This document shows positions 42,047-59,294 of a stretch of 64,000 bases of DNA, in pieces. The notes beneath the pieces were generated by a model. That model was given only the letters and a program-made list of their open reading frames with translations. It was not told the origin of the DNA and made no database searches. Numbering within the stretch: the first letter of the stretch is position 1; each line of letters starts with the position of its first letter. Location of the stretch: the NCBI GenBank assembly GCA_002099625.1, contig GCA_002099625.1_4857.1; one strand, given 5' to 3'. The DNA comes from Escherichia coli (lineage in GTDB: Bacteria; Pseudomonadota; Gammaproteobacteria; Enterobacterales; Enterobacteriaceae). The translations under genes and the position numbers were made by a program.

Positions 42047-42574
42047 TTAAACGAATCCGTCCAGTTCACCGTTGGTGGTGCTCAGGTCAGTTTTAACGAC
42101 TGGCTGCGTTACAGTATAAACTGCAAGGCTGGCAGGCTGGTATTTAATGTGGCCTTCTTTCACCTTAACAGTGATGATTTTCTCACCACTGTCGCCGTCC
42201 TCGCGTGTAATGGTGAGTTCAGACAATGCAAACGCATCTTCCGTTTTACCGGCAGCAATTAGATCTGCGTTGACAAAAGCAAGCACTTCTTCATCGGTAT
42301 CCCATTCTGCCTGGTCAGCGGTCACTGCTTTCGCACCGATAATGTTCAATGAATTGAGGCGGGTATAATGCAGCTCTTTCTCGCCAGTAAAGTTAGCGGA
42401 TTCCGCGGTGGCAGTGATGGTGAGTTTGGAGTTGCGAGTGTCTCCAGAATCTGCTGGTGAATAGTCGGCAACAGCGCCGAATGTAACGTCAGCAGAAGTT
42501 AACGGACTAGACAGTCCGCTGTTTGCAGCATTAAACAGCGCAACGAGTTGGTCTTTTGCAGAGATGACTGCCAT
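42047..42574 (-). CDS. small member of the fibre-like paralog family (175 aa) with C-terminal NGELDGF motif
   Basis: N-terminus MAVISAKDQLVALFNAAN resembles family N-termini; ends TTNGELDGFV; AAGGAA RBS. Confidence 0.65.
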   Translation of the reverse strand: MAVISAKDQLVALFNAANSGLSSPLTSADVTFGAVADYSPADSGDTRNSKLTITATAESANFTGEKELHYTRLNSLNIIGAKAVTADQAEWDTDEEVLAFVNADLIAAGKTEDAFALSELTITREDGDSGEKIITVKVKEGHIKYQPASLAVYTVTQPVVKTDLSTTNGELDGFV

Positions 42575-42697
42575 GGTTGTTTCCTTATAGTAGGTTTGTG
42601 GTGCATACTAAATCATTCTAAAAAATACATAGTGGGCTTAATATGACAGTAAAGTTGGCTGTTAAACAAGAAATTTTTTACCACTGAAAGGTACTCT

Positions 42698-43189
42698 ATG
42701 AAACGTCTATTTATCGTATTCGCGATTATAAACCTGTTGGCCGGTTGTGTTCAGTCGCCAAGCAACATAGGACAATTTAGCGCCACACCAGTAAAGAATC
42801 ACGACTTGGTGATTTATACATGCACAGGGACGCAGGAGAAGTTTATAGACTACCGTCCGGTTCTGGACAATCTACAGATGATGCCGCGGTCAGTAACAGT
42901 AATGGATGTGGGTGCAAACTGGGTAGCAACGTGGGACGGTGGCAAACTTGAGTCACCGATGATGTTTAAAGATGTGGTTGGCAAAATCGACGGGAATGTT
43001 AACACCACCACGGGCGAGCGTTATTACCGTATTAATAAAACAGCAAACGATAGCCCAACTTATTCTTTTTCGGATGTGAACCCACATACCGGGGAAGGTA
43101 AAGGGATGACATTCTTTCGCTGCAGCGCCGGCTTTATCGACGAAGTTCCTACGCCGATTATGATTGTTCCGTTAGAAGAAAATAAATAA
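42698..43189 (+). CDS. lipoprotein (163 aa)
   Basis: MKRLFIVFAIINLLAGC lipobox LAGC; isolated plus-strand gene with own terminator. Confidence 0.65.
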   Translation: MKRLFIVFAIINLLAGCVQSPSNIGQFSATPVKNHDLVIYTCTGTQEKFIDYRPVLDNLQMMPRSVTVMDVGANWVATWDGGKLESPMMFKDVVGKIDGNVNTTTGERYYRINKTANDSPTYSFSDVNPHTGEGKGMTFFRCSAGFIDEVPTPIMIVPLEENK

Positions 43190-43234
43190 TGCTTACCCAC
43201 TCCCGTAAGGGGAGTGGGTATGGGCTTTATTTAC
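43186..43234 (+). terminator. rho-independent terminator (approx coords)
   Basis: Stem ACCCACTCCC/GGGAGTGGGT, loop GTAA, followed by GGGCTTTATTT. Confidence 0.6.
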
Positions 43235-43239
43235 CCTCT

Positions 43240-43285
43240 AAAACGCTCTGTAACGCTCTCTAAACGCATTAAACGTCTTGGATGA
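43240..43285. repeat. four tandem ~10-bp direct repeats, core AACGC (approx coords)
   Basis: CTAAAACGCTCTG / TAACGCTCTC / TAAACGCATT / AAACGTCTTG in convergent intergenic region. Confidence 0.3.
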
Positions 43286-43314
43286 TAAATGATATTACTT
43301 TTGATTAAAGTGGC

Positions 43315-43830
43315 TTAGATTTTAACTAGCTTGCTCCAATCGATGGGTTGTTGTTTAACCACTTTAACGGTACCACGTGTCGGTGACCAGAAAGTGATAT
43401 CAGGCTGGTTGCGTACGTCAACATGCAGCCAGGTAATATCGCACTCGATAAAGTGAATAAACGGAAACTCGTTAGGGTTCGCGGCAATATAGTCGTGTAC
43501 TTTCTGCAACGGAGTATCAAGCATTGTTGCATCAAACGCATTGCCGAATTTATGCATACTGCCTGATTCCGCGTACAGTTTGTTTGCACGAGTTTGCCAA
43601 TCGCCACCCTTTGGTTTCTCTTGATTAATAAAGAACTGCAGGGTACGCAGACTACGCTGTTGCTGGGAACTGGTTAAAATCACCATCCGCCCAAAACGAT
43701 TACGAATCTGTTGGAGCGAGATTAGCAGTAACGGATTAAGGAAACGAATAGCACCTTCACCGTATTTCGCGATGTACTCCTGCGGCATCAACTCTTTTAA
43801 CGCGAAGTTGGCAGGATTCGGATGAAACAT
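43315..43830 (-). CDS. LAS-type zinc peptidase (peptidase M15-like; candidate endolysin L-alanyl-D-glutamate peptidase)
   Basis: SMHKFGNAFDA matches S-x-H-x-x-G-x-A-x-D zinc-binding block; downstream LHVDVR (H-x-D); AAGGAG RBS. Confidence 0.6.
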   Translation of the reverse strand: MFHPNPANFALKELMPQEYIAKYGEGAIRFLNPLLLISLQQIRNRFGRMVILTSSQQQRSLRTLQFFINQEKPKGGDWQTRANKLYAESGSMHKFGNAFDATMLDTPLQKVHDYIAANPNEFPFIHFIECDITWLHVDVRNQPDITFWSPTRGTVKVVKQQPIDWSKLVKI

Positions 43831-43839
43831 TTTCTCTCC

Positions 43840-44481
43840 TTAAGGGGTAGTCAGGAACGCACGTTTGATATTCAAATACTGCACGTTTACCGGTTGCCCA
43901 TTAGTAATGTCAACACGTTCGTGTTCAGGAATCGCTAACGTACGCGACGTTCTAAAGAACAGGTAGTTGCGATTATAGGACAACGTCTTTTCTACCGGCC
44001 GGCTATAAACCACCTTAGAGTTATCGTCTACATAGGACGGCCAACCAAACTCGTGAACGGCATGGTAGAAGGACTTACGAATAAAGGTATCAACGCCTAA
44101 TGCCTCCATGATACGTAAGAACATCAGGTCAGCGAATGTTTTGTCACATGCACGAGATAGATTACCTTCGACAGTGTCAGGGTAAAAGCCTACCGATGAA
44201 CGTTTCTGGTAAAACAAATCATGCACACAAGCGGCAGCGGCCCAAGGCCCATCCGGATGCAGGATAGGACGTAACGCTTCTGGAATGCTTGCCAGGTCCG
44301 TCACAAATCCTCTCGGTACCGTTACCCATAACGGGGTATCCGGATGCACACCTGCTAATGCTACCATCGCATCCATTCCGGTCTGTTCACGATAGAGGCT
44401 GCGCAACGTAAACTCGAAATGGAAATCATCCGTGAGGATAAACCACGGCTTCTCTAACAACTTATACTCAAGTGCTTCCAT
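43840..44481 (-). CDS. hypothetical protein, DUF1353-like (213 aa)
   Basis: Motif PRGFVTDLASIP...HDLFY reminiscent of DUF1353 phage proteins; GTGAGG RBS. Confidence 0.5.
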   Translation of the reverse strand: MEALEYKLLEKPWFILTDDFHFEFTLRSLYREQTGMDAMVALAGVHPDTPLWVTVPRGFVTDLASIPEALRPILHPDGPWAAAACVHDLFYQKRSSVGFYPDTVEGNLSRACDKTFADLMFLRIMEALGVDTFIRKSFYHAVHEFGWPSYVDDNSKVVYSRPVEKTLSYNRNYLFFRTSRTLAIPEHERVDITNGQPVNVQYLNIKRAFLTTP

Positions 44482-44488
44482 ACTGACC

Positions 44489-44581
44489 TCACGTCATATA
44501 ACGCACGAGCATCGTGAGGACCATTAATCCCAGTAAAATGGGCATTAAGCCTTTCGGCCAGTCGTCGTTGTCGTATTGCAT
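44489..44581 (-). CDS. possible small TM peptide (30 aa; approx coords)
   Basis: GGAGGG RBS 7 nt before ATG; MQYDNDDWPKGLMPILLGLMVLTMLVRYMT has one hydrophobic helix; below ORF-track size cutoff. Confidence 0.25.
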   Translation of the reverse strand: MQYDNDDWPKGLMPILLGLMVLTMLVRYMT

Positions 44582-44697
44582 GGCTTTACCCTCCGACAGA
44601 AGATCGCGCGTAATAGTTTGAAGAACCCAGAATCGTAATACGTTTCCGGAACGGTTTGTACTTCGGGGAACTTAGGCGGAGTTGGACGGTGGGTCAT
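44545..44697 (-). CDS. possible small protein (50 aa; approx coords)
   Basis: AAGGAG RBS 8 nt before ATG; overlaps neighbouring small ORFs out of frame. Confidence 0.2.
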   Translation of the reverse strand: MTHRPTPPKFPEVQTVPETYYDSGFFKLLRAIFCRRVKPCNTTTTTGRKA

Positions 44698-44773
44698 TAC
44701 GTTTTCTCCTTGCGGCAAAAACAAGGGCGCGCCAGATAGCTTTCATTAAGGCAGCAAACCAATTCTGTTTCAT
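44672..44773 (-). CDS. possible small basic/amphipathic peptide (33 aa; approx coords)
   Basis: ATG overlaps the lysozyme-gene stop (ATGA); MKQNWFAALMKAIWRALVFAARRKR. Confidence 0.2.
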   Translation of the reverse strand: MKQNWFAALMKAIWRALVFAARRKRNDPPSNSA

Positions 44774-45387: not shown

Positions 45388-45389
45388 AA

Positions 45390-45420
45390 AAAGAAAGCCT
45401 CTTCCCCACAGGGAAGAGGG
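45390..45420 (-). terminator. rho-independent terminator (approx coords)
   Basis: Stem CCTCTTCCC/GGGAAGAGG, loop CACA, T-rich tail on minus strand. Confidence 0.5.
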
Positions 45421-45465
45421 CATGGGTTATCTTCAGGCTTTAAACCCGTCAAGTTCCTCGTTAAA

Positions 45466-47643
45466 TTACGATAACGGTATCGTTGGCCGCACCCACGGTT
45501 TAGGGGCAGATTTGGTATACGGATTACATTCCATCATTTTACCGAGATACGCATCGTAATACACGAAGCGATCGACGTAGAACTTCTCCACCGGTGCACT
45601 ACTGGTAGCCGATTTCACCCGGTTGCGTTCCACAGCGAGGCTAATCGCCCCGGTAGGTGCGGGTTTTAGCGTGAACATTACCGCGCGGTTGTAACGCCAA
45701 GTGTCGTGCACAATATCAAACTCCGATACACAGTGTGCCATGATACCAAACAATGTGGTGGCTGGTAAGTTGGCTACAGCATCGCCGTATGGTGTTCCCA
45801 CCAAACCGCCGGGTATGTTTTGCTTTTTGAACAGCGTACCTGAAATAATCGTACCTAAGAACTCCACAACTACAGGTTTGGTTGGGTCGGTGACTTTATC
45901 TATCCCATCCGCACTGGCCAATCGGTTGGCATCTAAATCTGCGAGGTAGTCGAGGAACTCTTGGTACTCGTCGGTGACATTCGGTTTCACCGTTCCGACG
46001 GATACCCAGTTGACGATACTTTTATTCCCACCGACGGCTTCGCCTGCCATCCCAGGGCGAGTCCATGACATCCCGTCTTCACGACCGTAGACATAGACTG
46101 GCGAGCCGGTAGCCGGGGTGTTCCATTGCTCGAACGCTGTATATCGTCCCGGCTGGCCCCAATCCCCACCCGGACCGCCATAGTAGCGACTCTGGTAGCC
46201 GGTAAATTGTGCGACGACTAACTGGGTAGCACCGCCTTTGTCACGGGACCCAGCTAAGCCGTTACGGTTATTGGTGCCGCTGGGCACCGCCGCGCCTGGC
46301 CCGAGAGGCGCACCACCAGCTCCACCGATCTTGGTGGTGCTAAACGCATAGTAGTCGCCCCCACCCCCACCACCGGCGATGGTGCCGTAGTTTTCGATGG
46401 TGACTTTGCCGCGGAAGGTATCGGTAATGTGGATTGCGTCAGCTCCGTCTGCTGATGTGTTCGCAGGCAGAGAATAGACCATACCCGAACCACCACGACC
46501 AAGAATGGTTCCCCGGTTAACGAAGTTCCAAACCACCTCGCCAATTTGCGGCAATTCGTCGATAACGAACGTCGGTTTCAGGTTGCTGTCGCGATAAACG
46601 AAAGCCCCCGCATCTACGGTCACGTTAACAAACAAACGCCCGCACGCCGCATGGTTGGTCAACGTTGTGGCCCAGTAGCTGTCCGAAACTTGCGACGTGG
46701 TTGTGTAATTCAGGTTAAGGGTTTGCTCGTTATCTTGATAGCGTGCCACATTCAACGTGGCACTGCCCATGACTTTGTACGAACCCTCCACGGGTGCCAA
46801 TTGCACTTGTCTTGGCCACTCGCCTGTCAAGTTCTCTACAGGAGCAATTTCGTTTACATCAAAAACACTCCGAATGCCGAGTGTCTCGATGGCCAGAGCA
46901 TCGTGCAGGCTACCGGTGAAATCATCCGGGACGTATGTGGTTTTGCCTGCATATGTCTCGAGTTTGTTACGTGAAAAGAACACATACTTCGTCCCAAACA
47001 TCCCGCTCCCCGGTCTAGCGGTCAAAGCCACGACGCTGTTATACGCAGAGGTTTGGCCTATATCCTCCGGGGACATCGGGGCGCTGACATCGACTTTATC
47101 AAGATCCACGATCCGTTTGGCTGCATTAGAGTAGAAGTTAATCCACTGCTGTTTATTCGCAGCCTTTAGCGTGAGAATGATATTGGTAACAGTGTAGACG
47201 GTGTTGATATCCACGTCGCCGTTTATCACATCTAGCGTTTGGCTGCCGTACCAGACAAGACTTGTCTGTTTCGCCTGGAACGTGATGCGCGCAGCATTGT
47301 TTGTCCAAGTGATAGGCAGGTCTTCAAAGTCGTCGGTTAAAAAGGTAATCCCCAGTAAAGTGTCTAAATGCGGCAACAGTTCGTGAATGGATGCACAAGT
47401 GGGAATGGCATCCAACTTAACCTTAGCGAAATAATCAGCAATATTTTGCTTCGTGACTTGGGCCGTAATTTGACCGTAACTTGAATACCCCGGACCCCCT
47501 GTCAGTGTGACGTCTAGGGTTTTTTCGTCATGATGCTCCACGGACACCAGGCGAACGTTAGCGGGGTCTACTGCTTTGGCGACCGCGTTTTTACGGTTGA
47601 GCGACCGAATCACGGTCGCCACTAAATCAGGAGTGTAGGACAT
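45466..47643 (-). CDS. fibre-like paralog family member, long form with Gly-rich region (725 aa)
   Basis: AAGGTG RBS; family-type N-terminus; Gly-rich segment GGGGGGDYY...GGAGGAPLGPGAAVPSG. Confidence 0.75.
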   Translation of the reverse strand: MSYTPDLVATVIRSLNRKNAVAKAVDPANVRLVSVEHHDEKTLDVTLTGGPGYSSYGQITAQVTKQNIADYFAKVKLDAIPTCASIHELLPHLDTLLGITFLTDDFEDLPITWTNNAARITFQAKQTSLVWYGSQTLDVINGDVDINTVYTVTNIILTLKAANKQQWINFYSNAAKRIVDLDKVDVSAPMSPEDIGQTSAYNSVVALTARPGSGMFGTKYVFFSRNKLETYAGKTTYVPDDFTGSLHDALAIETLGIRSVFDVNEIAPVENLTGEWPRQVQLAPVEGSYKVMGSATLNVARYQDNEQTLNLNYTTTSQVSDSYWATTLTNHAACGRLFVNVTVDAGAFVYRDSNLKPTFVIDELPQIGEVVWNFVNRGTILGRGGSGMVYSLPANTSADGADAIHITDTFRGKVTIENYGTIAGGGGGGDYYAFSTTKIGGAGGAPLGPGAAVPSGTNNRNGLAGSRDKGGATQLVVAQFTGYQSRYYGGPGGDWGQPGRYTAFEQWNTPATGSPVYVYGREDGMSWTRPGMAGEAVGGNKSIVNWVSVGTVKPNVTDEYQEFLDYLADLDANRLASADGIDKVTDPTKPVVVEFLGTIISGTLFKKQNIPGGLVGTPYGDAVANLPATTLFGIMAHCVSEFDIVHDTWRYNRAVMFTLKPAPTGAISLAVERNRVKSATSSAPVEKFYVDRFVYYDAYLGKMMECNPYTKSAPKPWVRPTIPLS

Positions 47644-47657
47644 GGTGACACCTTAGT

Positions 47658-48977
47658 CTATAGCGGTGGATACCAAGGGACCGGGGCGGTTTTGCTATAT
47701 GGACTGTAGACCATATAGCCGCCTTTGCTTGGGTCGTAATAGATGAAATAGTTACAGTAATTCGAGTAAATACTCGTCATTTGTTTGGATTGGTATCCGT
47801 TACGGTATAGTCCCTGGTAAGTAATAGCTGATGTCGTGGTGGTGTAAGCAGTGTGGTACAGTACCCGACGCCGGTTAGCAATACTTTCTTGGAACATTTC
47901 TTCGGTCGGAAACGCGTGTTGCATCAGCCGTCGAATACTCCCGGTACAGTATCGAGTGCCATACGGGGAACCCGTTAAATCATCCGCTGTTTCAGGCGCT
48001 TCCGCCCGAGTCAACACGTACTCGTTTTGATACAACGTGACGCTCATCGAATTTGAGCTGGTTTCCCGGAACCTCATGTAACGCGCATAACGTTCGACGT
48101 CCTCTTCCTGCGCCAAATAGGCCACGTTATTTTTCGGACCAAAGTGCAAGAAGAACGGACGGCGGAGATTACCCATATCCTCAGGTGGCGTCAACTTCAC
48201 GCAGTAATTGTACTCCCCACGCATATCAGGGTCTAAGCCTGGGTTGTTATTGCGTGTAGCGACATACCCATAGAGGTCATACGGGTTATCAGTAGCAGCA
48301 TTACCGATAGTGAACGGGATGCCCGACCATGCCGACAGCGCCGCGATGAACTGGGTCATGTACGAGTTACTGTTTAGTCGCAGCGGGGTACCCATCGGGA
48401 TATTGATTATCTGTTGGGTGTACATGCTCCAGTCGAGTCGATAGACCGTGCTGTAAACATCCATGGGTTCCCAAGCTCCGGTTTCGGTGGTGTGGTACAA
48501 GTCGGCAAAGCTGGGCTCTTCACGAATAAAGCTAATTGGAATGTGACCCGTGAATGCGGGGTTATCCGATTTAATCGCCACCGTCCGATCGCCCGTTGCC
48601 ACAGTGATCATTGCAAACTGGCTGTCAGGATACGTTAAATCGTCAGCAGTAAGCACCAGCCCACAAGCTGCGGAAATCCGATCGATGATGTCGCGGTAGG
48701 ACGTCGCCCGATAAGGTACTTTAACCGGTACGCTGACGCCTTTAAAATACTGCGAAAGGTTTAAGCGGTCGTAGTAGATGTCCATCTTACCGCTGTAACC
48801 ACCACCCTGTAATCCGTTTACCACTATACGGCTGTTGCGGCCATCGCGCAAGGCATTGGTTAAAGGACCTTGTAATAACGCCACGTTGGTTGCGTTGAGT
48901 GGTTTCTTGAGCTGCGGGTTATCACGATTAATCTGATCCCAAACCAGCTGCATGACAGGTTTGTTATAGTTGATCAT
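47658..48977 (-). CDS. fibre-like paralog family member (439 aa)
   Basis: N-terminus MINYNKPVMQLVWDQINRDNPQL...GRNS...YYDRLNLSQYF carries the family NRDNP / YYDRLNL motifs. Confidence 0.75.
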   Translation of the reverse strand: MINYNKPVMQLVWDQINRDNPQLKKPLNATNVALLQGPLTNALRDGRNSRIVVNGLQGGGYSGKMDIYYDRLNLSQYFKGVSVPVKVPYRATSYRDIIDRISAACGLVLTADDLTYPDSQFAMITVATGDRTVAIKSDNPAFTGHIPISFIREEPSFADLYHTTETGAWEPMDVYSTVYRLDWSMYTQQIINIPMGTPLRLNSNSYMTQFIAALSAWSGIPFTIGNAATDNPYDLYGYVATRNNNPGLDPDMRGEYNYCVKLTPPEDMGNLRRPFFLHFGPKNNVAYLAQEEDVERYARYMRFRETSSNSMSVTLYQNEYVLTRAEAPETADDLTGSPYGTRYCTGSIRRLMQHAFPTEEMFQESIANRRRVLYHTAYTTTTSAITYQGLYRNGYQSKQMTSIYSNYCNYFIYYDPSKGGYMVYSPYSKTAPVPWYPPL

Positions 48978-48987
48978 TGCAACGTCC

Positions 48988-49144: not shown

Positions 49145-49155
49145 ATTAGCTCCTG

Positions 49156-50058
49156 TTAGCTAAGAACCAGTTCGATAACGTGGACTACCGACGCGCTATT
49201 GGTCGAAGAGGTGTACGATGGTAAGTCTGGTGAGCCGCTGCGATAATACCACGGGCTGGCGTTGTCATAACCGTTGGCAAACAATGTTGCGGTTGACTCG
49301 GTTGGACTACTGCCGGAGCGCGTCGGTAAGTCGCCAAAACGTCTTACGATGCCCGCGTACCGGAACAAGCTTGCGAACGTGTTGTGCCACTCGCCGTCTT
49401 GAAAATAACCACCGCTGCTTAGGTAGGTGCTGTGCCCATAACTGTAGTCTCCGAGTCGAGGCAAACGTACCACATACTCGTAACCGTCTTTATTAAATGT
49501 CCGACGCTGGTTAGTGGTAGTGACGCTCCGCGGCGGGAAACCGTAGTCATCTGTTCCCCAGGCCAGACCTTGCTGGTATTGTTCGTTCCACGTCGTCCCT
49601 AAACGGGTCACCGTGTCAGGAATGAACAGAATGCGTCCTTTGAAAACGAATTTATGGAACAATGTTGGAGCTTGGTTCCAGGCATTAAAGCCAATTAAAC
49701 CATTCAGCTCGGCATGGTTAAGAATAAATTCTTCGTTTGTCAGTGTGCCAAAGTAGCCACGATGCCAGTCGCCACGAATAAGTTCCTGTGGGCCGGGTCC
49801 TGTCATTGGAAAGTCGCCCTGTACAATCGGCAGCCCCATAACCTTTTCAGTGCCCTTTACCGCCACGATGCGATATTGATACGTTTTATACGCTTCGGTG
49901 GTCTTGTCCTCGTACGTCGTTGTGTTACCTGGTAGTGTTACAATAGGTTCCCCCGGTGCTACTGGGTTAACATTTTGTCTGGGGTTGTCGTAACGATAGA
50001 TTTCAATGGAATCCAAAGTCTGACCTGGCTGTTGTTTCCAGTTTAAGATAATCGACAT
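49156..50058 (-). CDS. module gene A1: fibre-like protein with FN3-like N-terminus (300 aa)
   Basis: GGAG RBS; motif FPMTGPGPQELIRGDWHRGYFGT shared with A2/A3 and the C genes. Confidence 0.75.
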   Translation of the reverse strand: MSIILNWKQQPGQTLDSIEIYRYDNPRQNVNPVAPGEPIVTLPGNTTTYEDKTTEAYKTYQYRIVAVKGTEKVMGLPIVQGDFPMTGPGPQELIRGDWHRGYFGTLTNEEFILNHAELNGLIGFNAWNQAPTLFHKFVFKGRILFIPDTVTRLGTTWNEQYQQGLAWGTDDYGFPPRSVTTTNQRRTFNKDGYEYVVRLPRLGDYSYGHSTYLSSGGYFQDGEWHNTFASLFRYAGIVRRFGDLPTRSGSSPTESTATLFANGYDNASPWYYRSGSPDLPSYTSSTNSASVVHVIELVLS

Positions 50059-50061: not shown

Positions 50062-51060
50062 TTACTCCACTAACTCGATAACGAATGCGTACAAACCGAC
50101 CTTCTCAGCACTGTCAATTAACGTAACTTGGGAGAGGTTACGTTTCGACGTATTGGTTATACTTGAATCGATAGGCGCAGACCCACGAACCAGAACTAAT
50201 CCCGATTCAGGATCACGTTCCTGGCACAAGAAACCTTTGCCTTGGTAAGCGCCACCGCTCCCATAAATGGACGCTGGACTAATATTAGTCCAGTTAGGGA
50301 GCATTTGTTTGTTAGGGATGCAATCAGCGAACGGATAAACAAAGTCGTTATATTCGCAGCGACCATATTCCAAGTCATCATGGTCTGCGTTTCGTAACGA
50401 TTCATCCAACGTCATTACTGTCGGTTCGTCCCCGTCGGTTAAACCGCGCAGCAATCGCATCCGATAGGTGTCGCCTTGCCATTCAAACAACCCACTCTGG
50501 TCAACACCTGCCAGATCCCCACGTCCGTTATCAGGACCAAATCCGTCTACGCCGTATACAAGACCCGCGTTATAAATGTCATTCCACGAGTAAAGTGTAG
50601 AGTTAAATCGTCCGCCGTTGTACATCATGTAGTAAACTTTACCATGACGATAAAACTTGTTCATGATTAGCGTGCCCGTGCCCGATATCCCTGTTAATGC
50701 ACGAAAGCCTGCAGGCAACGCGTCATAGGTCATCTGTTCTTCGAACGGCAACTGCCCCAGAAACGCCAAGTCGTCAGTATCGGAATAGTTAATCTGGTCG
50801 ACGCCACCCACACCACGACGGTTTTTAATGACAATGGATTTTTGTGGACTACCTACGGTACGACCGTTAACAGTTACTGTTAAAAGATACCAGTAACGGG
50901 TGTTAAGAATAACGGTTTCGTCCGTCCATTCCGTTTCGCCATTACTTAAAGTTGCAATAGGGGCTGGTAATGCGGCTGTATTTATTTTAGCCGTGCCCCG
51001 ATAAATGTTAACAATTGAACCTGCCGGATTTTCATTTTTCCAGCGTAGTGTGAAAGCCAT
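50062..51060 (-). CDS. module gene B1: fibre-like protein (332 aa)
   Basis: AAGGAG RBS; N-terminus MAFTLRWKNENPAGSIVNIYRGT paralogous to B2/B3. Confidence 0.75.
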   Translation of the reverse strand: MAFTLRWKNENPAGSIVNIYRGTAKINTAALPAPIATLSNGETEWTDETVILNTRYWYLLTVTVNGRTVGSPQKSIVIKNRRGVGGVDQINYSDTDDLAFLGQLPFEEQMTYDALPAGFRALTGISGTGTLIMNKFYRHGKVYYMMYNGGRFNSTLYSWNDIYNAGLVYGVDGFGPDNGRGDLAGVDQSGLFEWQGDTYRMRLLRGLTDGDEPTVMTLDESLRNADHDDLEYGRCEYNDFVYPFADCIPNKQMLPNWTNISPASIYGSGGAYQGKGFLCQERDPESGLVLVRGSAPIDSSITNTSKRNLSQVTLIDSAEKVGLYAFVIELVE

Positions 51061-51070: not shown

Positions 51071-52513
51071 TTAGAAGCCGTTCAACTCACCGTTCGCGGT
51101 TGCTAAATCTGTTTTAAGTGGAGGTTTTGCCTGAGTAGGCGGTAGTGGACGCGGTGCGTCGACGTGTGGTTCAAGTACAACCATCGGCCTAACTGTACCT
51201 ACGCTGTTCGACACTGTCGATAACGGCAGCGCAGTATCGACGTTTGGTTCACCCACCACAATCGGGCTGATAGGTTCTTCCACCTGTTCCGCAGTTGTTG
51301 CTAGAGGTCTCGGCGCATCTGTTGTCGCAACCACGACTGCAAGAGGGCGAATGCTATCAGGTTGTGGTGATGGTACATTAGGAATAACCCTAACGCGCCA
51401 CACAACATCCCCTTCCACATCAGCTAAAGGTAAGACGATGTCGTCCTTATTGATTTCCTCTAAAACAGGCCACCAGTAAGTGGTATCTGTAAGGGTTACC
51501 CATTCAACTGAGCCACCGCGCATATTGCAACGTTGTACTTTAACAGGGTTACCCCCGGTTAACAGTTGTTGCGTGAAGAAGACGGTGGTTCTGGTTAACG
51601 TGGTGTCATTTGCCCAGTCGCCGCCCGTAGAACCGTCACCGAGTTGTGAAATAAGCCACAACGGTGTGGCCTTTGATAAATCAGGGCTAACCGGAACGGA
51701 GACGCGGTAATAATGCGTCTTGTTATTCTCAGTTTTCGTGACAATCAAAGCCTGGTCAACAGGTTCGATACCGTCTGGATACGGACCAGCGTCACCTGTA
51801 CCGAAAATGGCACCCGCTTGATAAAGGGCCGTCCAGGTTGCTGTTAACGTTCCGGTAGTCGGTAGATAAACAATCTTACCATCCTTGAAAAATTTCAACC
51901 ATTCGAAAGTCATTTTCGTTGGGGCAACATCAGGACGAATTAGGTTGTTTAGTTCAGCAAAGGTAAATAACTCTTGCTGAGAAACGTGGCCGAAGTATCC
52001 GTTTGTGCTGTCCCCTGCCAACAAATATTTATTGCCTGGCCCAGAATCTGGATAGTAGCCCACGGCTTCATTCAAATAATCGACCGGGATATAGCCGCGA
52101 TAGCATACGCTATTATACACGGTTAAATTAATACGTGTTGGCGTTGCCAGCGATTTGATAGGCGCGTCTACCGACTGTACACTGCTATCAGATAACCAAA
52201 CACCGTATAAATCGCGTAGAGCTGGGAGAAGATCCCGCACGGTCTTGGCCGTTTGTGGTACGTAGATGCGCGGAGCTATTTTAAATAGATCTGATAATGT
52301 TAAACGGTCGTAATAAACCGTGCACTCCCCAGAGAAACCTTTACCGGGTTTTCCTACCAACGTAATTACCGTGTTACGACCATTCTTAGTGGTCTCGGCA
52401 GGAATACCCCTCACCCCAATCGAATCAGCGCTGATTCTTCCTGCGAGTTCAGGGTTATCCCTTACGACTTGCTGGCAGAGTAATTCCAGTTCGGGTGCGC
52501 TATACAATCCCAT
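51071..52513 (-). CDS. module gene C1: fibre-like family protein with C-terminal NGELNGF (480 aa)
   Basis: AGGAGA RBS; N-terminus MGLYSAPELELLCQQVVRDNPELAG...YYDRLTLSDLF; PRPL repeats near C-terminus. Confidence 0.75.
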   Translation of the reverse strand: MGLYSAPELELLCQQVVRDNPELAGRISADSIGVRGIPAETTKNGRNTVITLVGKPGKGFSGECTVYYDRLTLSDLFKIAPRIYVPQTAKTVRDLLPALRDLYGVWLSDSSVQSVDAPIKSLATPTRINLTVYNSVCYRGYIPVDYLNEAVGYYPDSGPGNKYLLAGDSTNGYFGHVSQQELFTFAELNNLIRPDVAPTKMTFEWLKFFKDGKIVYLPTTGTLTATWTALYQAGAIFGTGDAGPYPDGIEPVDQALIVTKTENNKTHYYRVSVPVSPDLSKATPLWLISQLGDGSTGGDWANDTTLTRTTVFFTQQLLTGGNPVKVQRCNMRGGSVEWVTLTDTTYWWPVLEEINKDDIVLPLADVEGDVVWRVRVIPNVPSPQPDSIRPLAVVVATTDAPRPLATTAEQVEEPISPIVVGEPNVDTALPLSTVSNSVGTVRPMVVLEPHVDAPRPLPPTQAKPPLKTDLATANGELNGF

Positions 52514-52524
52514 GAAGTCTCCTG

Positions 52525-53424
52525 TTAAGGCAGAACGAGTTCAAGTACCGCAATGGAGCGTATTGTAGTGGTACCGTAGTTACTCCACGACGGCGACTCA
52601 GGGTAAGGTGGACGGTTGTACCACTGACTGGACGTGTTATTCATAGCCGCAAAGAATGCAGATTGTTGGGCAGTAACCGAATCGATTGGACCGACCGGAA
52701 GGTCGTCAAAGCGCGGAAACTGCCCACTGTAGTTGTACAGGCGCGCGAAGGTGTTAAACCACTCACCGTCGAGATACAACTCAGTGTTACCGCTTCCAAC
52801 GTAAGACGTCCAGTATTTGTAGTCGAACAAATACGGCAAGCGCACCACGTATTCGTAACCGTTCTTCGCCACCGTGCGGCGTTGGTTACGTGCAGTAGCC
52901 CAGCCCGGTACATATCCATTGCCATCCTGGCCGTACATCATCCCCTGGTTATAAATGAACTGCGGGCTAGCGTTTATTATCGAGTTATCGGACATAAACA
53001 GAATACGGTTTTTGTAAATGAATTTATGCCAGGCACCAACGGCGGAACTGAACATATTCACCACGAGGCCGTTCAGTTCCGTGTTAGTGAATAACTCTGC
53101 CGGCGTTACTGTTCCAAAGTATCCAGCGTGCCAGTCGCCGTATAACAGCTTCTGGGGGCCAGGCCCGGTGTCTAAAAAGAACCCTTGGGCGGTAGGGGTG
53201 TTGAAGACACGCTCACCGTCTTTAACCGCAGCTATCCAATAACGGTAAGTGGTGTTGTTTTCCACAGCGTTGTCTTCGTACGATGTAGCGTCACCCGGAA
53301 GGGTTGCCAGAGGCGTTCCCGGTGCATTAACATCAATGGTGGCGTTGCCAGGCGTCTTGCGATAGATTTCGATGTTATCGAGCGCCTGTGGCTTCCGTTG
53401 TGCAAAGTTTAATGTAATAGGCAT
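52525..53424 (-). CDS. module gene A2 (299 aa from Met13 of track ORF)
   Basis: GAGGA RBS before internal ATG; LDTGPGPQKLLYGDWHAGYFGT. Confidence 0.75.
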   Translation of the reverse strand: MPITLNFAQRKPQALDNIEIYRKTPGNATIDVNAPGTPLATLPGDATSYEDNAVENNTTYRYWIAAVKDGERVFNTPTAQGFFLDTGPGPQKLLYGDWHAGYFGTVTPAELFTNTELNGLVVNMFSSAVGAWHKFIYKNRILFMSDNSIINASPQFIYNQGMMYGQDGNGYVPGWATARNQRRTVAKNGYEYVVRLPYLFDYKYWTSYVGSGNTELYLDGEWFNTFARLYNYSGQFPRFDDLPVGPIDSVTAQQSAFFAAMNNTSSQWYNRPPYPESPSWSNYGTTTIRSIAVLELVLP

Positions 53425-53426
53425 GA

Positions 53427-54416
53427 TTAATCCTCGATAAGCTCGATTACTGGAATCCAAATACCGCCCACGGTCGCACCAGGGACATGTTGTATACGCT
53501 GGAGGTTATCCACGGTATCAGTGGAATCCGCCGCCGCCCATCCGCGCGTCAGCCCCAACTTACTGTCTGGGTCAAACTCCTGACAATGCGCCCCACGGCC
53601 TGCCACCAGCGATCCGTTTCCGAATATGCTGGAGTTCGACCACTTTATCAGGGACATCACTTTTTTCTTTTCTGGGAACCAGCTACTTATCCCATAGATG
53701 AGTCGGTTGTATTCGCTATCGGCAGTATACGGTGACGCGTCATGGAGTTTACCGTTCCACTGTGCGTCGAGTGTCATGACCGGGCTTTCACTGTCGAGCG
53801 TTAACCCGCGCAGCAGGCGCATCCGATAGCGGTCACCCAACCACGTAAACTCCCCAGCCTGGTCAACGTCAGGTAAATCACCATGACCGCCTTCCGGACC
53901 AGGTCCCGCCACACCGTACAGCAAACCCGCGTTATAAATCGCATCACGGCTATACAGCGTGTTGCCGTTCACACGAAGACCACTAAACAGATACAGAATT
54001 TTACCGTCTAGCTGGAACTTCATCAAGCCCGGCTTAACAGTTGGGTCGTATCCAGAAAGGGCCACAAACCCTGGCGGATAATCACCCGCGCTAGGTAATT
54101 CACCGTACGCCACGTACCCGTAATACGCAAAGCGGTCATCACCGTACAGTGGAGCCACGATGCCGATACCGCGACGGTTCTGAATCAGAATTGATTTCTG
54201 CGGACTGAACAGTGTCCGACTTCCCACTGTCACGGTGGTCATGTAGTAATACGTTGTCCCCAGTATCGCTGTTCGGTCAGTATACTCAGTTTCCCCGTTA
54301 GTGAACGTTGCCAGGGGTTCAGGTAATGCCGTACGCACCAGAGGTTTGGTGTCGCGGTACAGCTTCACGGTCGAAGCCCCAGGGTTATTGTTCGTCCAAC
54401 GAATTGTAAAAGCCAT
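53427..54416 (-). CDS. module gene B2 (329 aa)
   Basis: Paralog of B1/B3 (MAFTIRWTNNNPGASTVKLYRDT). Confidence 0.75.
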   Translation of the reverse strand: MAFTIRWTNNNPGASTVKLYRDTKPLVRTALPEPLATFTNGETEYTDRTAILGTTYYYMTTVTVGSRTLFSPQKSILIQNRRGIGIVAPLYGDDRFAYYGYVAYGELPSAGDYPPGFVALSGYDPTVKPGLMKFQLDGKILYLFSGLRVNGNTLYSRDAIYNAGLLYGVAGPGPEGGHGDLPDVDQAGEFTWLGDRYRMRLLRGLTLDSESPVMTLDAQWNGKLHDASPYTADSEYNRLIYGISSWFPEKKKVMSLIKWSNSSIFGNGSLVAGRGAHCQEFDPDSKLGLTRGWAAADSTDTVDNLQRIQHVPGATVGGIWIPVIELIED

Positions 54417-54428
54417 TGTCGTTACCTC

Positions 54429-55925
54429 TTATTGGAATCCATCCAACTCACCGTTAGTATCGCCCAGAGTAATTTTTGAAGGTTGGGCGATTTGGTCAGT
54501 CGTGAGAATAATCGGTCTAATCTTAACGCTAGCCATACCTGTTACCGCGACGGAATATGCACGTTCATCATTGTCCGTCGTGGCAAGCAGAGGACGTGGT
54601 GAGTCTGATGACGCTTCCCGCACCCAGGCAGGGGTGGCAGTTTCGGTGTTGTCGGTGTTGAAAACTAACGGACGTGGATTCGCTGCGGCGGAGGTTTCCG
54701 TAATAGGCACCACACGAAGCGATTCATTTTGGTCGATGTCCGTCAGAGTAACCACGGACGGTGCCCATGTTAGTTCTGCACCTTCGTCAATCAACGGCAC
54801 AGGTTCATTGGCAATATCAAACATCTCCAGGATTGGCCAAAAGCCAGAAGAGGTGTAGATGTAGGTGTTTGAACGATAGCTCCCACTGATAGACTGGTAA
54901 TACGCTTGGTCGGCACCGAACTGGTGTCGTAACCACACGTAATCCAGGAAGTTAGCATCAGTCGTGCTAAGAGTTCCCCATTCCCCATATACGTTCACCG
55001 ACCCCAATTTGCTGGTCAGTGACAGGATAGAGGTGATTGACGGCGGTTTACTCCAATCAGGCGCGGCGGCGTTCTCGGTGTAATACGGGATAGACATTCT
55101 GAAATAATGCGTTCCTTCATCATCCCGTTTTACCATGTATTTCAACTGTTCAACATCGACAGGTGTGTAAGTCGACTTCGGGCGAGGTCCTGCGTCTCCG
55201 GAATCAAATATTGCACCCTTGTTGTACAGGTCTGCCCAGGTAACGTTGCAAATCGCACGGGTCGGAACAAACACTACCGCCCCATTCAGAAAGAATTTGA
55301 GCCACTTGATAGCGTAGCGGTTAGGCCAGTTGGTGCCGTTATAAAGGGCATACACCATTTCATCAGATGTGAATAACTCTTCCGCGCTTACCAGCCCAAA
55401 GAATCCGTATAACTCATTACCAGCCATTAATCCTTTTGGCCCAGGACCCGACTTCGGATACATCGCAATCGGTTCGTAAACATAGGTCATCTTGCATGAC
55501 CCGGTATAGCACAAGGAGTTAGCGTGCGCCGTCAGAGTTACAGTTTCCGGCGTAGCGTATTTCATTAATGCAACGTTTGGACTGGTGATATCACTCGCGG
55601 TTAAGTTCAACCCATTCAATTCATTGAACGCCGGTAACGCTTCCGCATGGGTTTGTGCGCTACGTGGAATACTCACCATATTCGGGCCAGACTTAAATAG
55701 ACTGGCCAGATTCAACCGGTCGTAATATACCGTTATTTCCCCAGCAAATCCTTTACCGGGTTTTCCTACCAACGTAATCTGTGTGTTTCGTCCGTTAACG
55801 TTTCTCGCAACAGGAACACCCCTGACCCCAACGGAGTCAGCGGTGATTTTTCCTGCTAAACTGGGATTGTCACGCACAATTTGTTGGCAGAGCAGTTCCA
55901 TTGAAGGTTCTGTATACAACCCCAT
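54429..55925 (-). CDS. module gene C2 with C-terminal NGELDGF (498 aa)
   Basis: ACGGAG RBS; N-terminus MGLYTEPSMELLCQQIVRDNPSLAG; SPRPL repeats. Confidence 0.75.
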   Translation of the reverse strand: MGLYTEPSMELLCQQIVRDNPSLAGKITADSVGVRGVPVARNVNGRNTQITLVGKPGKGFAGEITVYYDRLNLASLFKSGPNMVSIPRSAQTHAEALPAFNELNGLNLTASDITSPNVALMKYATPETVTLTAHANSLCYTGSCKMTYVYEPIAMYPKSGPGPKGLMAGNELYGFFGLVSAEELFTSDEMVYALYNGTNWPNRYAIKWLKFFLNGAVVFVPTRAICNVTWADLYNKGAIFDSGDAGPRPKSTYTPVDVEQLKYMVKRDDEGTHYFRMSIPYYTENAAAPDWSKPPSITSILSLTSKLGSVNVYGEWGTLSTTDANFLDYVWLRHQFGADQAYYQSISGSYRSNTYIYTSSGFWPILEMFDIANEPVPLIDEGAELTWAPSVVTLTDIDQNESLRVVPITETSAAANPRPLVFNTDNTETATPAWVREASSDSPRPLLATTDNDERAYSVAVTGMASVKIRPIILTTDQIAQPSKITLGDTNGELDGFQ

Positions 55926-55938
55926 GGCTTTTACTCCG

Positions 55939-56862
55939 TTACGGTAAGACTAATTCGAAAGCAAAGAAAATTGTTACAGCAACACCCACTCCTGATGAGT
56001 TGGTAATCCCCGCCGGGGCATAACCGTACGCATAAGCGAAAAGGTTGCTGTTCCATAAAGGAGCTAGCACGGCTGCACCTGTTTCGTTAGGCTGGGCAGT
56101 TGAACCTTGCGGCGGTATTGAATCGATGGCACCAAGACCAATAGGCGGGAACTGTGCACCGACAGGATACAAACGGCCCATTGTGTTTCGCCATTCGCCG
56201 TTGTTGTAATCCTGTCCTGAGAGAGCCGCGTCGTACGGGACTGCGTAAGGTAATCGGATACGGTACGTACGACCATCCTTCGTGACCTTACAATCTTGTT
56301 TAGTCGCCGTGGCTCCCTGCGGGACTATGATCCCGTTATCATCGGTCCCGTACATCATCCCGTACTGATACGCCATCTGTACCGAGTTGGTTTTCGAATG
56401 CATCGTCGCTGGGAAGAAGACAATTCTCCCACGGAAAATAAACTTGTGCCATTCCTGAGGGTCGTAGGTAAACATGTTTCCCTGCTGCGCAGTTAACATG
56501 AGTTTTAACTCGGCAGTATTAAAGAACTCTGTATTCGGTACTGTACCGAAATAACCTGAAGCCCAGTCACCTCGCAAAATAGTTTGCGGTCCCGGTCCAG
56601 TGTCTGGATAGAACCCTTGCGTAATCGGATTGCCGATAAGTCGTTCACTGTCTTTTACAGCAGCTACCCAATAACGATAAGTTGTATTCTTCGTCAGAGT
56701 ATCAATATCGTCTACGAACTCTACCGCGTTGCCTGATAAAGTTGCGTGGGGCGTGCCTGGATTGTAAACGTCGATTGTTGCGTTCCAACCTTCCTTGCGG
56801 TAGATTTCAATCGCGGTAAGACCTTTGCTGGCTTGGGACGGCCAGCTTAACCGTATAGTCAT
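55939..56862 (-). CDS. module gene A3 (307 aa)
   Basis: AAGGGG RBS; YPDTGPGPQTILRGDWASGYFGT. Confidence 0.75.
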   Translation of the reverse strand: MTIRLSWPSQASKGLTAIEIYRKEGWNATIDVYNPGTPHATLSGNAVEFVDDIDTLTKNTTYRYWVAAVKDSERLIGNPITQGFYPDTGPGPQTILRGDWASGYFGTVPNTEFFNTAELKLMLTAQQGNMFTYDPQEWHKFIFRGRIVFFPATMHSKTNSVQMAYQYGMMYGTDDNGIIVPQGATATKQDCKVTKDGRTYRIRLPYAVPYDAALSGQDYNNGEWRNTMGRLYPVGAQFPPIGLGAIDSIPPQGSTAQPNETGAAVLAPLWNSNLFAYAYGYAPAGITNSSGVGVAVTIFFAFELVLP

Positions 56863-56871
56863 GACTGCCCC

Positions 56872-57870
56872 TTACTCGACCAGTTCAAAGATAGGGTAGT
56901 AACGCCCTTTCGTGGTGGGTGATAAATAGTTTATACGCTGAATCGCTGATACGGGTGTTCCACCGGCATTGTTAAAGATACCACGATGGAGCACACGGTC
57001 TTCCGCGGTGTCGTGTTCCATACAGAGAACTCCGGCACCGAAATACGTTGCCGAGGTTCCCAAATTAGCCTGTCCCAGATAAGTATAACCGATTGTTGCC
57101 CAGTTAGCCCAACGTTGTTTCTTCGGCACCTCGTTAACCATCGTGTAAAGTAAATCGTTATACTCGCACGGGTTGGTTAGAGAAGCGATTTCATCGTGGG
57201 TTTTCCCATTGTAGTCAGCCACGAAAGGATACGCAGGAGACTCGCTAGACGTCGTCAGGCCGCGAGGAAGACGCATAATGTACGTATCCCCTTTGTGGAC
57301 TATCTTAGCGTCTTGTGGAGTGGCCGGTAGCGTTCCATGGCCGTTCTCTGGGCCAGCATCGCCTGTACCATAGACTAAACCAGCTTGATAGAGGGAAGCC
57401 CAGTCCACAGGCGTATTCGGGAACTGCGACGTATTAGATAGCATGTAATAGATCTTCCCGTTTCGGGTAAATTTATACAACGCCACACGATCGGTTAATA
57501 GATTAGGGAACATCGCCAAAAATGCAGGTGGCATTTGCGACGGAAGCCATTGTTCGTCGTAAGGAACCGCACCCATAAACCCTAAACGGTCGTTACCGTT
57601 TAGAATAGTCATTGGGCCAATCCCACGCTTTATCTCAATGGTGTATTTCTGGCTAGACGATGCCACTGTTTTACCGTTGGCGGTTACCGTCAGAAGGTAA
57701 TAATAGGTTGCGCCTGGTGCGGCGGTGGTATCACGCCATTCTGTCTCGCCATTTGAGAGCGTTGCAATCGGTTCAGGCAAAGCGCTCGGTGTGATATCTT
57801 TAACGTCACGGTAGATTTTTACTACCGTAGAGATTACGTTTGGATTTTTCCAACGCAAAGTAAAAGACAT
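56872..57870 (-). CDS. module gene B3 (332 aa)
   Basis: Paralog of B1/B2 (MSFTLRWKNPNVISTVVKIYRDV). Confidence 0.75.
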   Translation of the reverse strand: MSFTLRWKNPNVISTVVKIYRDVKDITPSALPEPIATLSNGETEWRDTTAAPGATYYYLLTVTANGKTVASSSQKYTIEIKRGIGPMTILNGNDRLGFMGAVPYDEQWLPSQMPPAFLAMFPNLLTDRVALYKFTRNGKIYYMLSNTSQFPNTPVDWASLYQAGLVYGTGDAGPENGHGTLPATPQDAKIVHKGDTYIMRLPRGLTTSSESPAYPFVADYNGKTHDEIASLTNPCEYNDLLYTMVNEVPKKQRWANWATIGYTYLGQANLGTSATYFGAGVLCMEHDTAEDRVLHRGIFNNAGGTPVSAIQRINYLSPTTKGRYYPIFELVE

Positions 57871-57881
57871 GGATGATACCT

Positions 57882-59294
57882 CTACTTAAAGCCGTTCAGT
57901 TCACCGTTAAGAGACGTTAACGATGTCTTGTCGGGTGGCGTATACATTTCAGCGGTAGCCGCAATGGGTTGGAAGTCGACTGTCTTCGGCAGCATTAAAG
58001 CAGGCGGATGCAGTGCGAAACTGTTTTCTGAAGTAACAACTACCGGTTCGAAATCGGTAGTATCTGGATTACCGAGCACCAACGGCTTGAGACTAAACGT
58101 GTTTTCTGCGGACACGCTGCACGGTTGGAGACTGTAATCTACCGCACCATGGATATCTTCTAAACCCAAGGTAACTGTGGACTTATCCACCAACTCTAGC
58201 ACCGGGAACCAGTAGTAGTTGCCTGCGCTCGATGATTTTCCTAAGTTTGTCCAACTGGCTCCAGACAACGTCGCCATGCGATGATTGGCGACGTTGGTGT
58301 TCAGTGTATCTTTCAATAAACAGAACAGCGTCCAGTAACTGTTAATCGGTTTGTCCCACGTTCCATTATACAGAAAGTTGAACATCTCAAACTCACTACC
58401 TGCTAACTCAGCGGCAGTTGGGGTGCCGCTGACGTATGGGTCTTTCCCGGCACTAGGTAGACGAACACGGAAGTAAAACCTTTTGTTGTCTGCGCCTGTA
58501 AAGCTAATGATGCGTCCCTGGTTAACGGGCGTCGCCGCAGGGTATTTACCATTATCGTCTGTTCCGTAAACGAGTCCGTTTGTATATAACGTATTCCAGG
58601 AGATGGAGCTAGCGACAGGACTAATCGGGAGGTAAATAACCCTACCCTGGTAAAAGAACTTGTACCAACCTTCGGCACCAGAATGTACCGGTGGTAACGC
58701 ACCGGCCGATATAGTGGCATTAAGAAGTTGAGAGTGTGTAAACAACTCTGCAATTGTGGTTGTTCCGAAATAACCCGCGATAGTGTTACCTTGCAGCAAC
58801 GTTTTAGGGCCAGGTCCAGAATCGGGGTAAATTGCACCACTCGGGACGGTATAACGTATCGTTAAGCTGCCTGTAAACGCAGGGCAATTACCTGAGATAT
58901 TTAATTTCAACGTCTGCGGCGAAGCGCTCGGTTTAGGTAAACTTGCGTCAGGTGACTGCAAATCAGAAGCAACTAATGTAAGCCCCAATGCGTCGTTTAT
59001 TGCAGGTAGCGCGTCTCGTACCGTTAAGACTGTATCTTTGATAGCCACAGTCGGCACAAAATTAAATAAAGTGGCCAGGTTAATCCGGTCGTAGTACACG
59101 GTAACATTACCTTGTACACCTGTCCCTGGATACCCGGTGAAAACAGCTTTGGTGTTACGTTGGTTTAACGTAACTGAAGTTGGGCCGCTGGTTAAAGCAG
59201 CGATAGCCGGCGTCAGCTTAACAACTAAATCAGGATTATCCCGATTGACTTGGTCGTATACAAGCAGTGCCGACTCCTTCGAGTAAAATAGCAT
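57882..59294 (-). CDS. module gene C3 with C-terminal NGELNGF (470 aa)
   Basis: CGGAG RBS; N-terminus ...VYDQVNRDNPDL...YYDRINLATLF. Confidence 0.75.
   Translation of the reverse strand: MLFYSKESALLVYDQVNRDNPDLVVKLTPAIAALTSGPTSVTLNQRNTKAVFTGYPGTGVQGNVTVYYDRINLATLFNFVPTVAIKDTVLTVRDALPAINDALGLTLVASDLQSPDASLPKPSASPQTLKLNISGNCPAFTGSLTIRYTVPSGAIYPDSGPGPKTLLQGNTIAGYFGTTTIAELFTHSQLLNATISAGALPPVHSGAEGWYKFFYQGRVIYLPISPVASSISWNTLYTNGLVYGTDDNGKYPAATPVNQGRIISFTGADNKRFYFRVRLPSAGKDPYVSGTPTAAELAGSEFEMFNFLYNGTWDKPINSYWTLFCLLKDTLNTNVANHRMATLSGASWTNLGKSSSAGNYYWFPVLELVDKSTVTLGLEDIHGAVDYSLQPCSVSAENTFSLKPLVLGNPDTTDFEPVVVTSENSFALHPPALMLPKTVDFQPIAATAEMYTPPDKTSLTSLNGELNGFK

Follow-up and report, generated by a model that had tools for sequence, protein, structure and literature searches.

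We analysed a 64,000-nucleotide window of contig GCA_002099625.1_4857.1 (Escherichia coli assembly GCA_002099625.1), in which four proteins share a short C-terminal tail containing NGEL[DN]GF. The window is 97-98% identical to the Salmonella jumbo phage SPN3US and its relatives (Seoulvirus, Chimalliviridae) and, judged by sequence, is itself an SPN3US-like Salmonella jumbo phage of the Chimalliviridae; gp numbers below follow the original SPN3US numbering. The tail proteins are gp160 and three larger proteins, gp151, gp148 and gp145, which we call C proteins. The C genes belong to a gene order that is repeated three times, a C gene followed by a B gene and then an A gene. The A and B proteins have a lectin-like domain in common with the C proteins (one A protein matches the C-family phrog_3589, E 4.3e-22) and carry neither a DUF7941 domain nor the tail. 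Comparison with the DUF7941 family, described below, leads us to identify the tail as the linker peptide of that family, a family feature.

The first-pass annotation of this DNA had reported the shared C-terminus, and this observation stands. A six-frame translation of the window contains NGEL[DN]GF at exactly four sites, all on the minus strand and each zero or one residue before the stop codon. The expectation by chance is 1.05e-4 from residue frequencies, no site appeared in 200 shuffled windows, and in the whole SPN3US genome the strict motif is confined to the four genes. The 14-codon tails are 52-71% identical at the nucleotide level, and about half of their identical residues differ in codon, indicating that the tail is conserved at the protein level and was not spread by recent DNA exchange. 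The low number of expected occurrences (~1e-4) and the codon differences among the four tails thus rule out chance and recent gene conversion as its origin. Two details of the annotation hold in part: the prefix T/A/S-x-N is found in three of the four proteins, the 498-residue gp148 having D-T-N, and the PRPL repeats reported for the C proteins occur twice each in gp151 and gp148 and nowhere in gp145.

The four proteins had also been described as otherwise diverged, which proved incorrect: all of them start with a DUF7941 domain, and the three C proteins can be aligned end to end at 32-38% identity, so that they are paralogs. PF25613 scores are 42.1 bits for gp160, 78.8 for gp151, 105.1 for gp148 and 110.6 for gp145, all above the gathering score of 27 bits. 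The N-terminal domain (NTD) of each has the fold of phiKZ gp127 residues 1-150. Coverage by the hidden Markov model (HMM) ends at profile position 76-151 in all four, and none has the C-terminal domain (CTD) found at positions ~175-291. We built a profile from the window's five full-length paralogs, gp144-gp140; it matches PDB 9xqd (PHIKZ127) with an E-value of 1.3e-22 and, searched against 1.84 billion representative proteins, recovers 2865 family members at E <= 1e-3.

Using 112 full-length representatives, we derived a consensus for the linker of the family: L158 .. [VIL]162 T163 N164 T165 x L167 [DPN]168 G169 [LF]170 x Y172 P173. The tail sequence TNGELDGF agrees with the linker consensus T-N-T-x-L-D-G-[LF] at six of eight positions, and the Y-P part of the linker motif is absent from all four tails. 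The counterparts of the tail in gp144-gp140 are internal linkers such as TQTKLDGLVYP and TTNVLTGLKYP. Alignment of the gp160 family with the 112 full-length DUF7941 proteins by hhalign is collinear (query 1-179, template 1-171; probability 98.8%, E 4.4e-17) and makes the gp160 tail coincide with the linker, immediately behind the last NTD strand. The linker thus follows the NTD directly in gp160, whereas in the C proteins that site is deleted and the motif is C-terminal instead. When a linker-only HMM was run against 90 tail-bearing proteins, its best match fell on the C-terminal tail in 78, with weak scores. Because scores of so short a motif barely differ from those of shuffled sequence, we base the homology of tail and linker on position and collinearity and not on score.

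Other DUF7941 proteins without a CTD end in a similar way. Two short SPN3US proteins of this kind encoded outside the window stop just after a recognisable linker motif, namely gp83 (..ALDGFRPGEFLNG / ..KRALDGFRPGEFLNG) and gp237 (..ELNGLVYDVSDMAQA / ..TVTELNGLVYDVSDMAQA); in a third, gp122, the terminal repeat is more degenerate (..VLCIGDDAVLTYGDDA). Among distant metagenomic members whose sequence stops after an NTD, the last residues are ..SLGGF, ..VLTGF or ..KDLNGFTATI, or two to three tandem LLDxGx units. In 22 of the 150 best family representatives, NTDs are fused in tandem, the linker running straight into the next NTD with no CTD, and gp155 is built likewise. We propose that such tandem fusions are a covalent version of the linker-NTD contact discussed below. 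As a separate observation, many metagenomic DUF7941 proteins are arrays of two to three NTDs (entries P0108-P0251 of our set; for example P0131, P0134, P0115, P0174, P0175 and P0235), and several of these arrays finish on an LLDxGx / [IL]TGFD unit present two or three times in tandem, a hint of multivalent donor tails. In gp155, the sequence joining its two NTDs (..INGDVDINTV..) resembles the tail motif.

We examined the conservation of the tail in relatives of both protein types. Absence of the motif from orthologs had been named in the first-pass annotation as grounds for abandoning its proposal; the motif is kept in 60/60 gp160 orthologs and 24/25 C orthologs, down to 25-45% identity. All 60 full-length representatives of the gp160 type keep K-T-D-L-S-T-T-[ND]-G-E-L-[DN]-G-F, followed by zero to nine variable residues, indicating that G-F need not carry a free carboxyl group. 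The description of the motif as strictly C-terminal therefore suits the C-protein relatives, 24 of 25 of which end zero or one residue after the motif phenylalanine, and not the gp160 relatives. Among 41 gp160 orthologs (47-89% identity), L171 is invariant and K161, D163, L164, G169, E170 and F174 are at least 90% conserved. Among 25 C-family proteins (25-88% identity), L476, G478 and F479 (gp151 numbering) never vary, conservation of G474 and E475 is at least 90%, and the ~110 residues before the motif are highly variable. In Erwinia phage Wellington, the gp160 ortholog carries NGELNGF and the two C proteins carry NGVLGDF and SGELDDF.

When IMG/VR was scanned for the exact pattern TNGEL[DN]GF, 33 matches came up. 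In fourteen, the protein belongs to DUF7941 and the motif lies zero to four residues from the stop; these are on phage contigs of ~220-245 kb and one of 107 kb, so that the motif is not unique to the four window proteins. Another 17 lie in open reading frames (ORFs) of ~300-380 amino acids, with the motif internal, 151-184 residues before the stop. By the look of their sequence, unchecked against a family library, we take these 17 ORFs to be HK97-type (major) capsid proteins, and we treat the internal motif as a coincidental match in an unrelated family. Capsid-like ORFs with internal TNGE[LF][DN]GF are found at IMG/VR loci L006, L008, L010, L011, L014, L016, L020, L022, L025-L030, L033, L035 and L036 of our set.

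The smallest of the four proteins, gp160, consists of a DUF7941 NTD and a linker with no CTD, and this layout matches that of gp23 of phage Goslar, which was described as an NTD plus a disordered linker, CTD absent, and yet was counted as a DUF7941 protein (bioRxiv 10.64898/2026.04.21.720040). The collinear alignment of Goslar gp23 reaches profile position 174, and the protein has the C-terminus ...NVADGFVKPTVSVVG / ...LADNVADGFVKPTVSVVG. Both proteins are ~175-180 amino acids long, contain only NTD and linker, and end just past L-x-D-G-F (..NVADGFVKPTVSVVG in gp23, ..NGELDGFV in gp160). Each is also among the most abundant proteins of its virion, gp160 being a virion protein with >300 copies in SPN3US (PMC5694885). 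The two differ in that the spacing within the gp160 tail is two residues shorter, and the tail has the SPN3US-clade form NGEL[DN]GF without the following K/Y-P; in a tblastn search with gp160, Goslar was not among the matches listed. Because both are CTD-less NTD-linker proteins and gp23 aligns collinearly up to the linker, we assign gp160 by homology as the SPN3US-clade counterpart of Goslar gp23 and as a new member of the gp23 type. The AlphaFold2 (AF2) model of gp160 has a mean predicted local distance difference test (pLDDT) score of 89.7, with the tail at 73-82. A Foldseek search of this model against the PDB returned no significant match, and gp160 contains no cysteine anywhere.

The three C proteins have no linker after the NTD and carry the motif at the far C-terminus, behind a lectin-like domain and a proline-rich spacer. 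In the hhalign alignment, 13 residues are missing at precisely the point where the canonical linker would follow the NTD. A possible remnant linker, 'G-x-Y-P', after the C-protein NTD was set aside, as the A proteins, which lack DUF7941, have the same G[FY][FY]P.[ST]GPG element at the start of the shared domain. The C-family spacer contains 12.3% proline compared with 6.2% elsewhere, and across 23 C-family proteins the proline autocorrelation reaches z = 6.8 at lag 13 and 5.5-6.5 at lags 26-27, values that are inflated because the 23 sequences are related. AF2 predicts the spacer to be disordered, with pLDDT <50 for the tether and ~50 for the tail, and models the C-protein NTD at pLDDT 80-90 though no linker adjoins it, which speaks against a need for the motif in folding of the protein's own NTD. 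A BFVD search with the C-protein model matched only uncharacterised jumbo-phage virion proteins. Coordinates of all features are collected in Table 1.

Table 1. Genes, motif sites, tails and spacers of the tail-bearing locus (window positions; positions in the last three rows are those of SPN3US, NC_027402.1)
Feature	Position	Strand	Remarks
gp160, 175 aa	42047-42574	minus	DUF7941 NTD and linker, without CTD
gp160 motif site	42053-42073	minus	gene ends ...KTDLSTTNGELDGFV, then stop
gp160 14-residue tail, KTDLSTTNGELDGF	42053-42094	minus	canonical linker place, directly after last NTD strand
gp151 (C protein), 480 aa	51071-52513	minus	NTD ~1-150, lectin-like middle ~151-362, disordered spacer 363-462, terminal motif
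gp151 motif site	51074-51094	minus	gene ends ...KTDLATANGELNGF, then stop
gp151 tail, KTDLATANGELNGF	51074-51115	minus	proposed donor motif, up to last residue of protein
gp151 spacer	51128-51427	minus	13-residue period; IRPL / PRPL / ISPI / ALPL / VRPM / PRPL units
gp148 (C protein), 498 aa	54429-55925	minus	layout as gp151
gp148 motif site	54435-54455	minus	gene ends ...KITLGDTNGELDGFQ, then stop
gp148 tail, KITLGDTNGELDGF (+Q)	54435-54476	minus	
gp148 spacer	54477-54773	minus	2 x PRPL, 1 x IRPI; spacings 26
gp145 (C protein), 470 aa	57882-59294	minus	layout as gp151 with shorter spacer
gp145 motif site	57888-57908	minus	gene ends ...KTSLTSLNGELNGFK, then stop
gp145 tail, KTSLTSLNGELNGF (+K)	57888-57929	minus	
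gp145 spacer	57930-58193	minus	degenerate x-P-h repeats LKPL, FEPV, LHPP, FQPI; no literal PRPL
B genes gp152/149/146	50062-51060, 53427-54416, 56872-57870	minus	interleaved with C genes
A genes gp153/150/147	49156-50058, 52525-53460, 55939-56862	minus	interleaved with C genes
Full-length DUF7941 paralogs gp144-gp140 (five)	59342-63758	minus	each NTD, linker and CTD
gp154	47658-48977	minus	full DUF7941 module and extra C-terminal domain, without tail
gp155, 725 aa	45466-47643	minus	two tandem DUF7941 NTDs and Gly-rich T4 Gp38-adhesin-like domain (PF05268, E 4.8e-18), without tail
Radical SAM genes gp164/gp163	38674-39468 and 39461-40789, overlapping	plus	just upstream of fibre cluster, opposite strand
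DUF1353 'tail assembly chaperone' gene	43840-44481		near the cluster
gp83 (locus L038)	82918-83445	plus	outside window
gp122 (locus L039)	105780-106352	plus	outside window
gp237 (locus L041)	202364-202915	minus	outside window

A head-to-tail filament system made of DUF7941 proteins is already known (April 2026), and the tail is most likely an assembly tag of that kind and no new signal. For Goslar gp22 and gp23 and for phiKZ gp126-gp127, AlphaFold3 models have each protomer's linker, together with any CTD, docked on the NTD of the following protomer; purified Goslar gp22 forms filaments in negative-stain electron microscopy, the virion holds ~2140 copies of gp23 and 580 of gp22, and a 'fibre cloud' anchored at the baseplate periphery was proposed (bioRxiv 10.64898/2026.04.21.720040). 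In the phiKZ atlas, one gp127 terminates each gp139 band at the outer baseplate (PMC13250141). We infer from the Goslar preprint that the tail would bind an NTD in trans, and we consider it probable that the tail is the donor (linker) peptide of a DUF7941 filament system, plugging its subunit into the NTD of the next. Such a trans-docking role fits because NTD-linker-NTD units occur as tandem fusions, the C-protein NTD lacks a linker of its own, and selection is focused on few residues of the motif. Of the functions offered in the first-pass annotation, a sorting, cleavage or assembly signal, docking or assembly is the one that suits a tail homologous to the DUF7941 linker; no result of this analysis speaks for recognition by a chaperone.

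According to this model, linker-to-NTD docking between successive protomers would build head-to-tail filaments that are attached to the virion. As a minimal protomer of NTD plus linker, gp160 would probably be the bulk, high-copy filament subunit. The C proteins could act as acceptors by way of the NTD and as donors by way of the tail, and could thus be built into the same filaments; gp145, gp148 and gp151 would enter by the same donor peptide, which would ride on a disordered proline-rich tether of ~100 residues behind the lectin-like domain, and would display these putative glycan-binding domains. The full-length paralogs gp144-gp140 are likely both acceptors and donors in the same filaments. 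The tail-less gp154 and gp155 are candidate chain-end subunits that would only accept, and gp155 is likely a distal receptor-binding subunit.

The four tail proteins depart from the known members of the system in several respects. In Goslar gp22 and in phiKZ gp127 (PDB 9xqd) and gp126, the CTD docks together with the linker, whereas the tail proteins have no CTD. Like the C proteins, Goslar gp86, gp92 and gp161 join a DUF7941 N-terminus to putative host-recognition domains. In gp86, however, the linker LTGLKY (residue 159) lies right after the NTD, the cargo comes next and there is no C-terminal motif, whereas the C proteins have lost the post-NTD linker and bear the motif at the very C-terminus, after cargo and tether. 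This C-protein layout of NTD, cargo, periodic disordered spacer and terminal donor motif is not described in the literature we found and appears to be a new variant. Chaperone-usher pilins polymerise by a comparable principle, donor-strand exchange of a kind in which a short terminal peptide completes or binds the globular domain of the next subunit to form linear, non-covalent, head-to-tail fibres. Unlike in DUF7941 proteins, the pilin donor is N-terminal and a chaperone and an usher are needed; we found no relationship in sequence or fold, and the analogy is one of working only.

Several points weigh against the donor-peptide model. The linker-only HMM gives a median of 0.2 bits on the tails compared with a 95th percentile of 0.3 bits on shuffled sequence, and the two conserved leucines are spaced two residues closer in the tail than in the canonical linker. 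The pLDDT of the gp160 tail in the AF2 monomer could equally mean packing in cis. The tail-NTD contact rests on AlphaFold3 models of an unreviewed preprint, and filaments were demonstrated only for gp22, a CTD-bearing protein (bioRxiv 10.64898/2026.04.21.720040). Moreover, the SPN3US 'paralog family B' (gp83, gp138-154, gp237 and others) was assigned to the head because it is retained with tailless particles (PMC5105663, PMC5694885). This assignment conflicts with the baseplate anchoring in phiKZ and Goslar, and co-purified filaments or a second anchoring site are possible explanations. Finally, the role of the 13-residue repeats is left unexplained by the donor-peptide model; they might serve as a flexible tether, bind the cognate A and B proteins, or form a shaft that is ordered only in the oligomer.

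The same head assignment bears on the best-surviving alternative, that the tail addresses its protein to a partner other than a DUF7941 NTD, with the four proteins competing for one site; an anchor on capsid or baseplate, the A and B proteins and the DUF1353 chaperone are candidates. The near identity of the four tails leads one to expect the same partner, SPN3US proteomics places the family on tailless heads, the DUF1353 protein is encoded at 43840-44481, and the C-B-A gene triplets suggest complexes. We nevertheless regard such a tag as unlikely: the motif is the family linker, found also in full-length paralogs and in phages without A and B genes such as Goslar, the tandem NTD-linker-NTD fusions set the linker beside an NTD, and no partner is pointed to by any result.

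Somewhat less probable still is that the motif is a structural element acting in cis, which caps or completes its own NTD without joining subunits. In gp160 this would suit both the place of the motif, directly after the last NTD strand, and the moderate pLDDT of the tail. In the C proteins, however, the motif lies >300 residues and a disordered spacer away from the NTD, which is modelled with confidence without it while the tail is not, and the two to three tandem C-terminal copies of the motif in some relatives are unexplained by a single cis site.

The periodic proline and hydrophobic residues of the spacer bring up another reading, in which the 13-residue repeats form a trimeric, beta-spiral-like shaft, the heptapeptide is its trimerisation cap, and the C proteins are classical trimeric fibres. 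An obligate trimer would indeed score low in a monomer AF2 model, and classical fibre-type genes lie nearby, for example that for the Gp38-like domain. We give this reading only a slim chance, since the same tail is found on gp160, which has no repeats, and the number and sequence of the repeats vary freely between orthologs. In the same context, a Pfam scan at E up to 0.1 found no Peptidase_S74 intramolecular chaperone domain, and the conserved element is only ~14 residues long.

Least probable of these alternatives is that the tail is a recognition or modification site of the adjacent radical S-adenosylmethionine (SAM) enzymes, for example for a cross-link that locks filament joints covalently. 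The 442-residue enzyme resembles radical SAM/SPASM maturases of ribosomally synthesized and post-translationally modified peptides (RiPPs), with matches to CXXX-repeat TIGR04115 (3e-36), PapB (1.1e-32) and HxsB (4.8e-21). In SPN3US and Erwinia phage Wellington the two genes are syntenic with the cluster, and full-length orthologs occur in the same clade as the NGELDGF tail form. All family scores are, however, far below the curated cut-offs, and the closest maturases act on cysteine (CXXX-repeat/PapB) or His-Xaa-Ser (Hxs), whereas the four tails have neither Cys nor H-x-S. The substrates would be structural proteins of 175-498 amino acids and not short precursors. Full-length phage orthologs among the matches listed belong only to the SPN3US/Erwinia/Cronobacter clade; Goslar is not among them, yet it has filament proteins. 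Because enzyme and tail form are confined to one clade, their co-occurrence is uninformative. It would be very surprising if the radical SAM/SPASM pair installed a non-thioether cross-link or modification on the tail or the tail-NTD joint, as a RiPP-like maturase acting on virion proteins. The 264-residue radical SAM protein weakly resembles HxsC and twitch-domain enzymes, also with scores far below the curated cut-offs.

We found no support for cleavage by the SPN3US prohead protease, and hence for the cleavage option of the first-pass annotation. The sites listed for this protease show A-x-E, whereas the tail reads N-G-E, and the family is absent from the eight processed proteins listed (gp45, 47, 50, 53, 54, 75, 81 and 245; PMC5694885). 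An example of a C-terminal tryptic peptide of the tail proteins is TDLSTTNGELDGFV; the supplements of PMC10052503 and PMC5694885 hold no peptide-level mass-spectrometry data for these proteins.

The DUF7941 'fibre cloud' model of host recognition by chimalliviruses is very recent and draws mainly on structure predictions. The locus described here narrows the proposed donor element to a peptide of 8-14 residues with three invariant residues, L, G and F, so that the model can be tested precisely by mutation and peptide competition in SPN3US, for which amber-mutant genetics are established. It also suggests a second mode of cargo loading, in which a lectin-like domain and a flexible tether now precede the donor peptide, so that cargo subunits could sit in the middle of a chain and not at its end. 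If true, the donor-peptide model would help to explain the very large paralog family B of SPN3US, with several binding domains on one scaffold in one phage.

Two further observations concern genes of this cluster. In several deposited records of Salmonella phages (SPFM1, 5, 8, 9, 10, 12, 14, 15 and 20), NTD blocks appear in shuffled order within these genes (proteins P0059, P0062-63, P0066, P0068, P0077, P0079-81, P0088 and P0099-102 of our set), which looks like an assembly artefact and not biology. The C-termini of gp155 and gp154 (45466-45520 and 47658-47710, minus strand) have a common end, ..PY[ST]K[TS]AP.PW..P.., within the shared domain phrog_6409, a second family-specific terminal motif.

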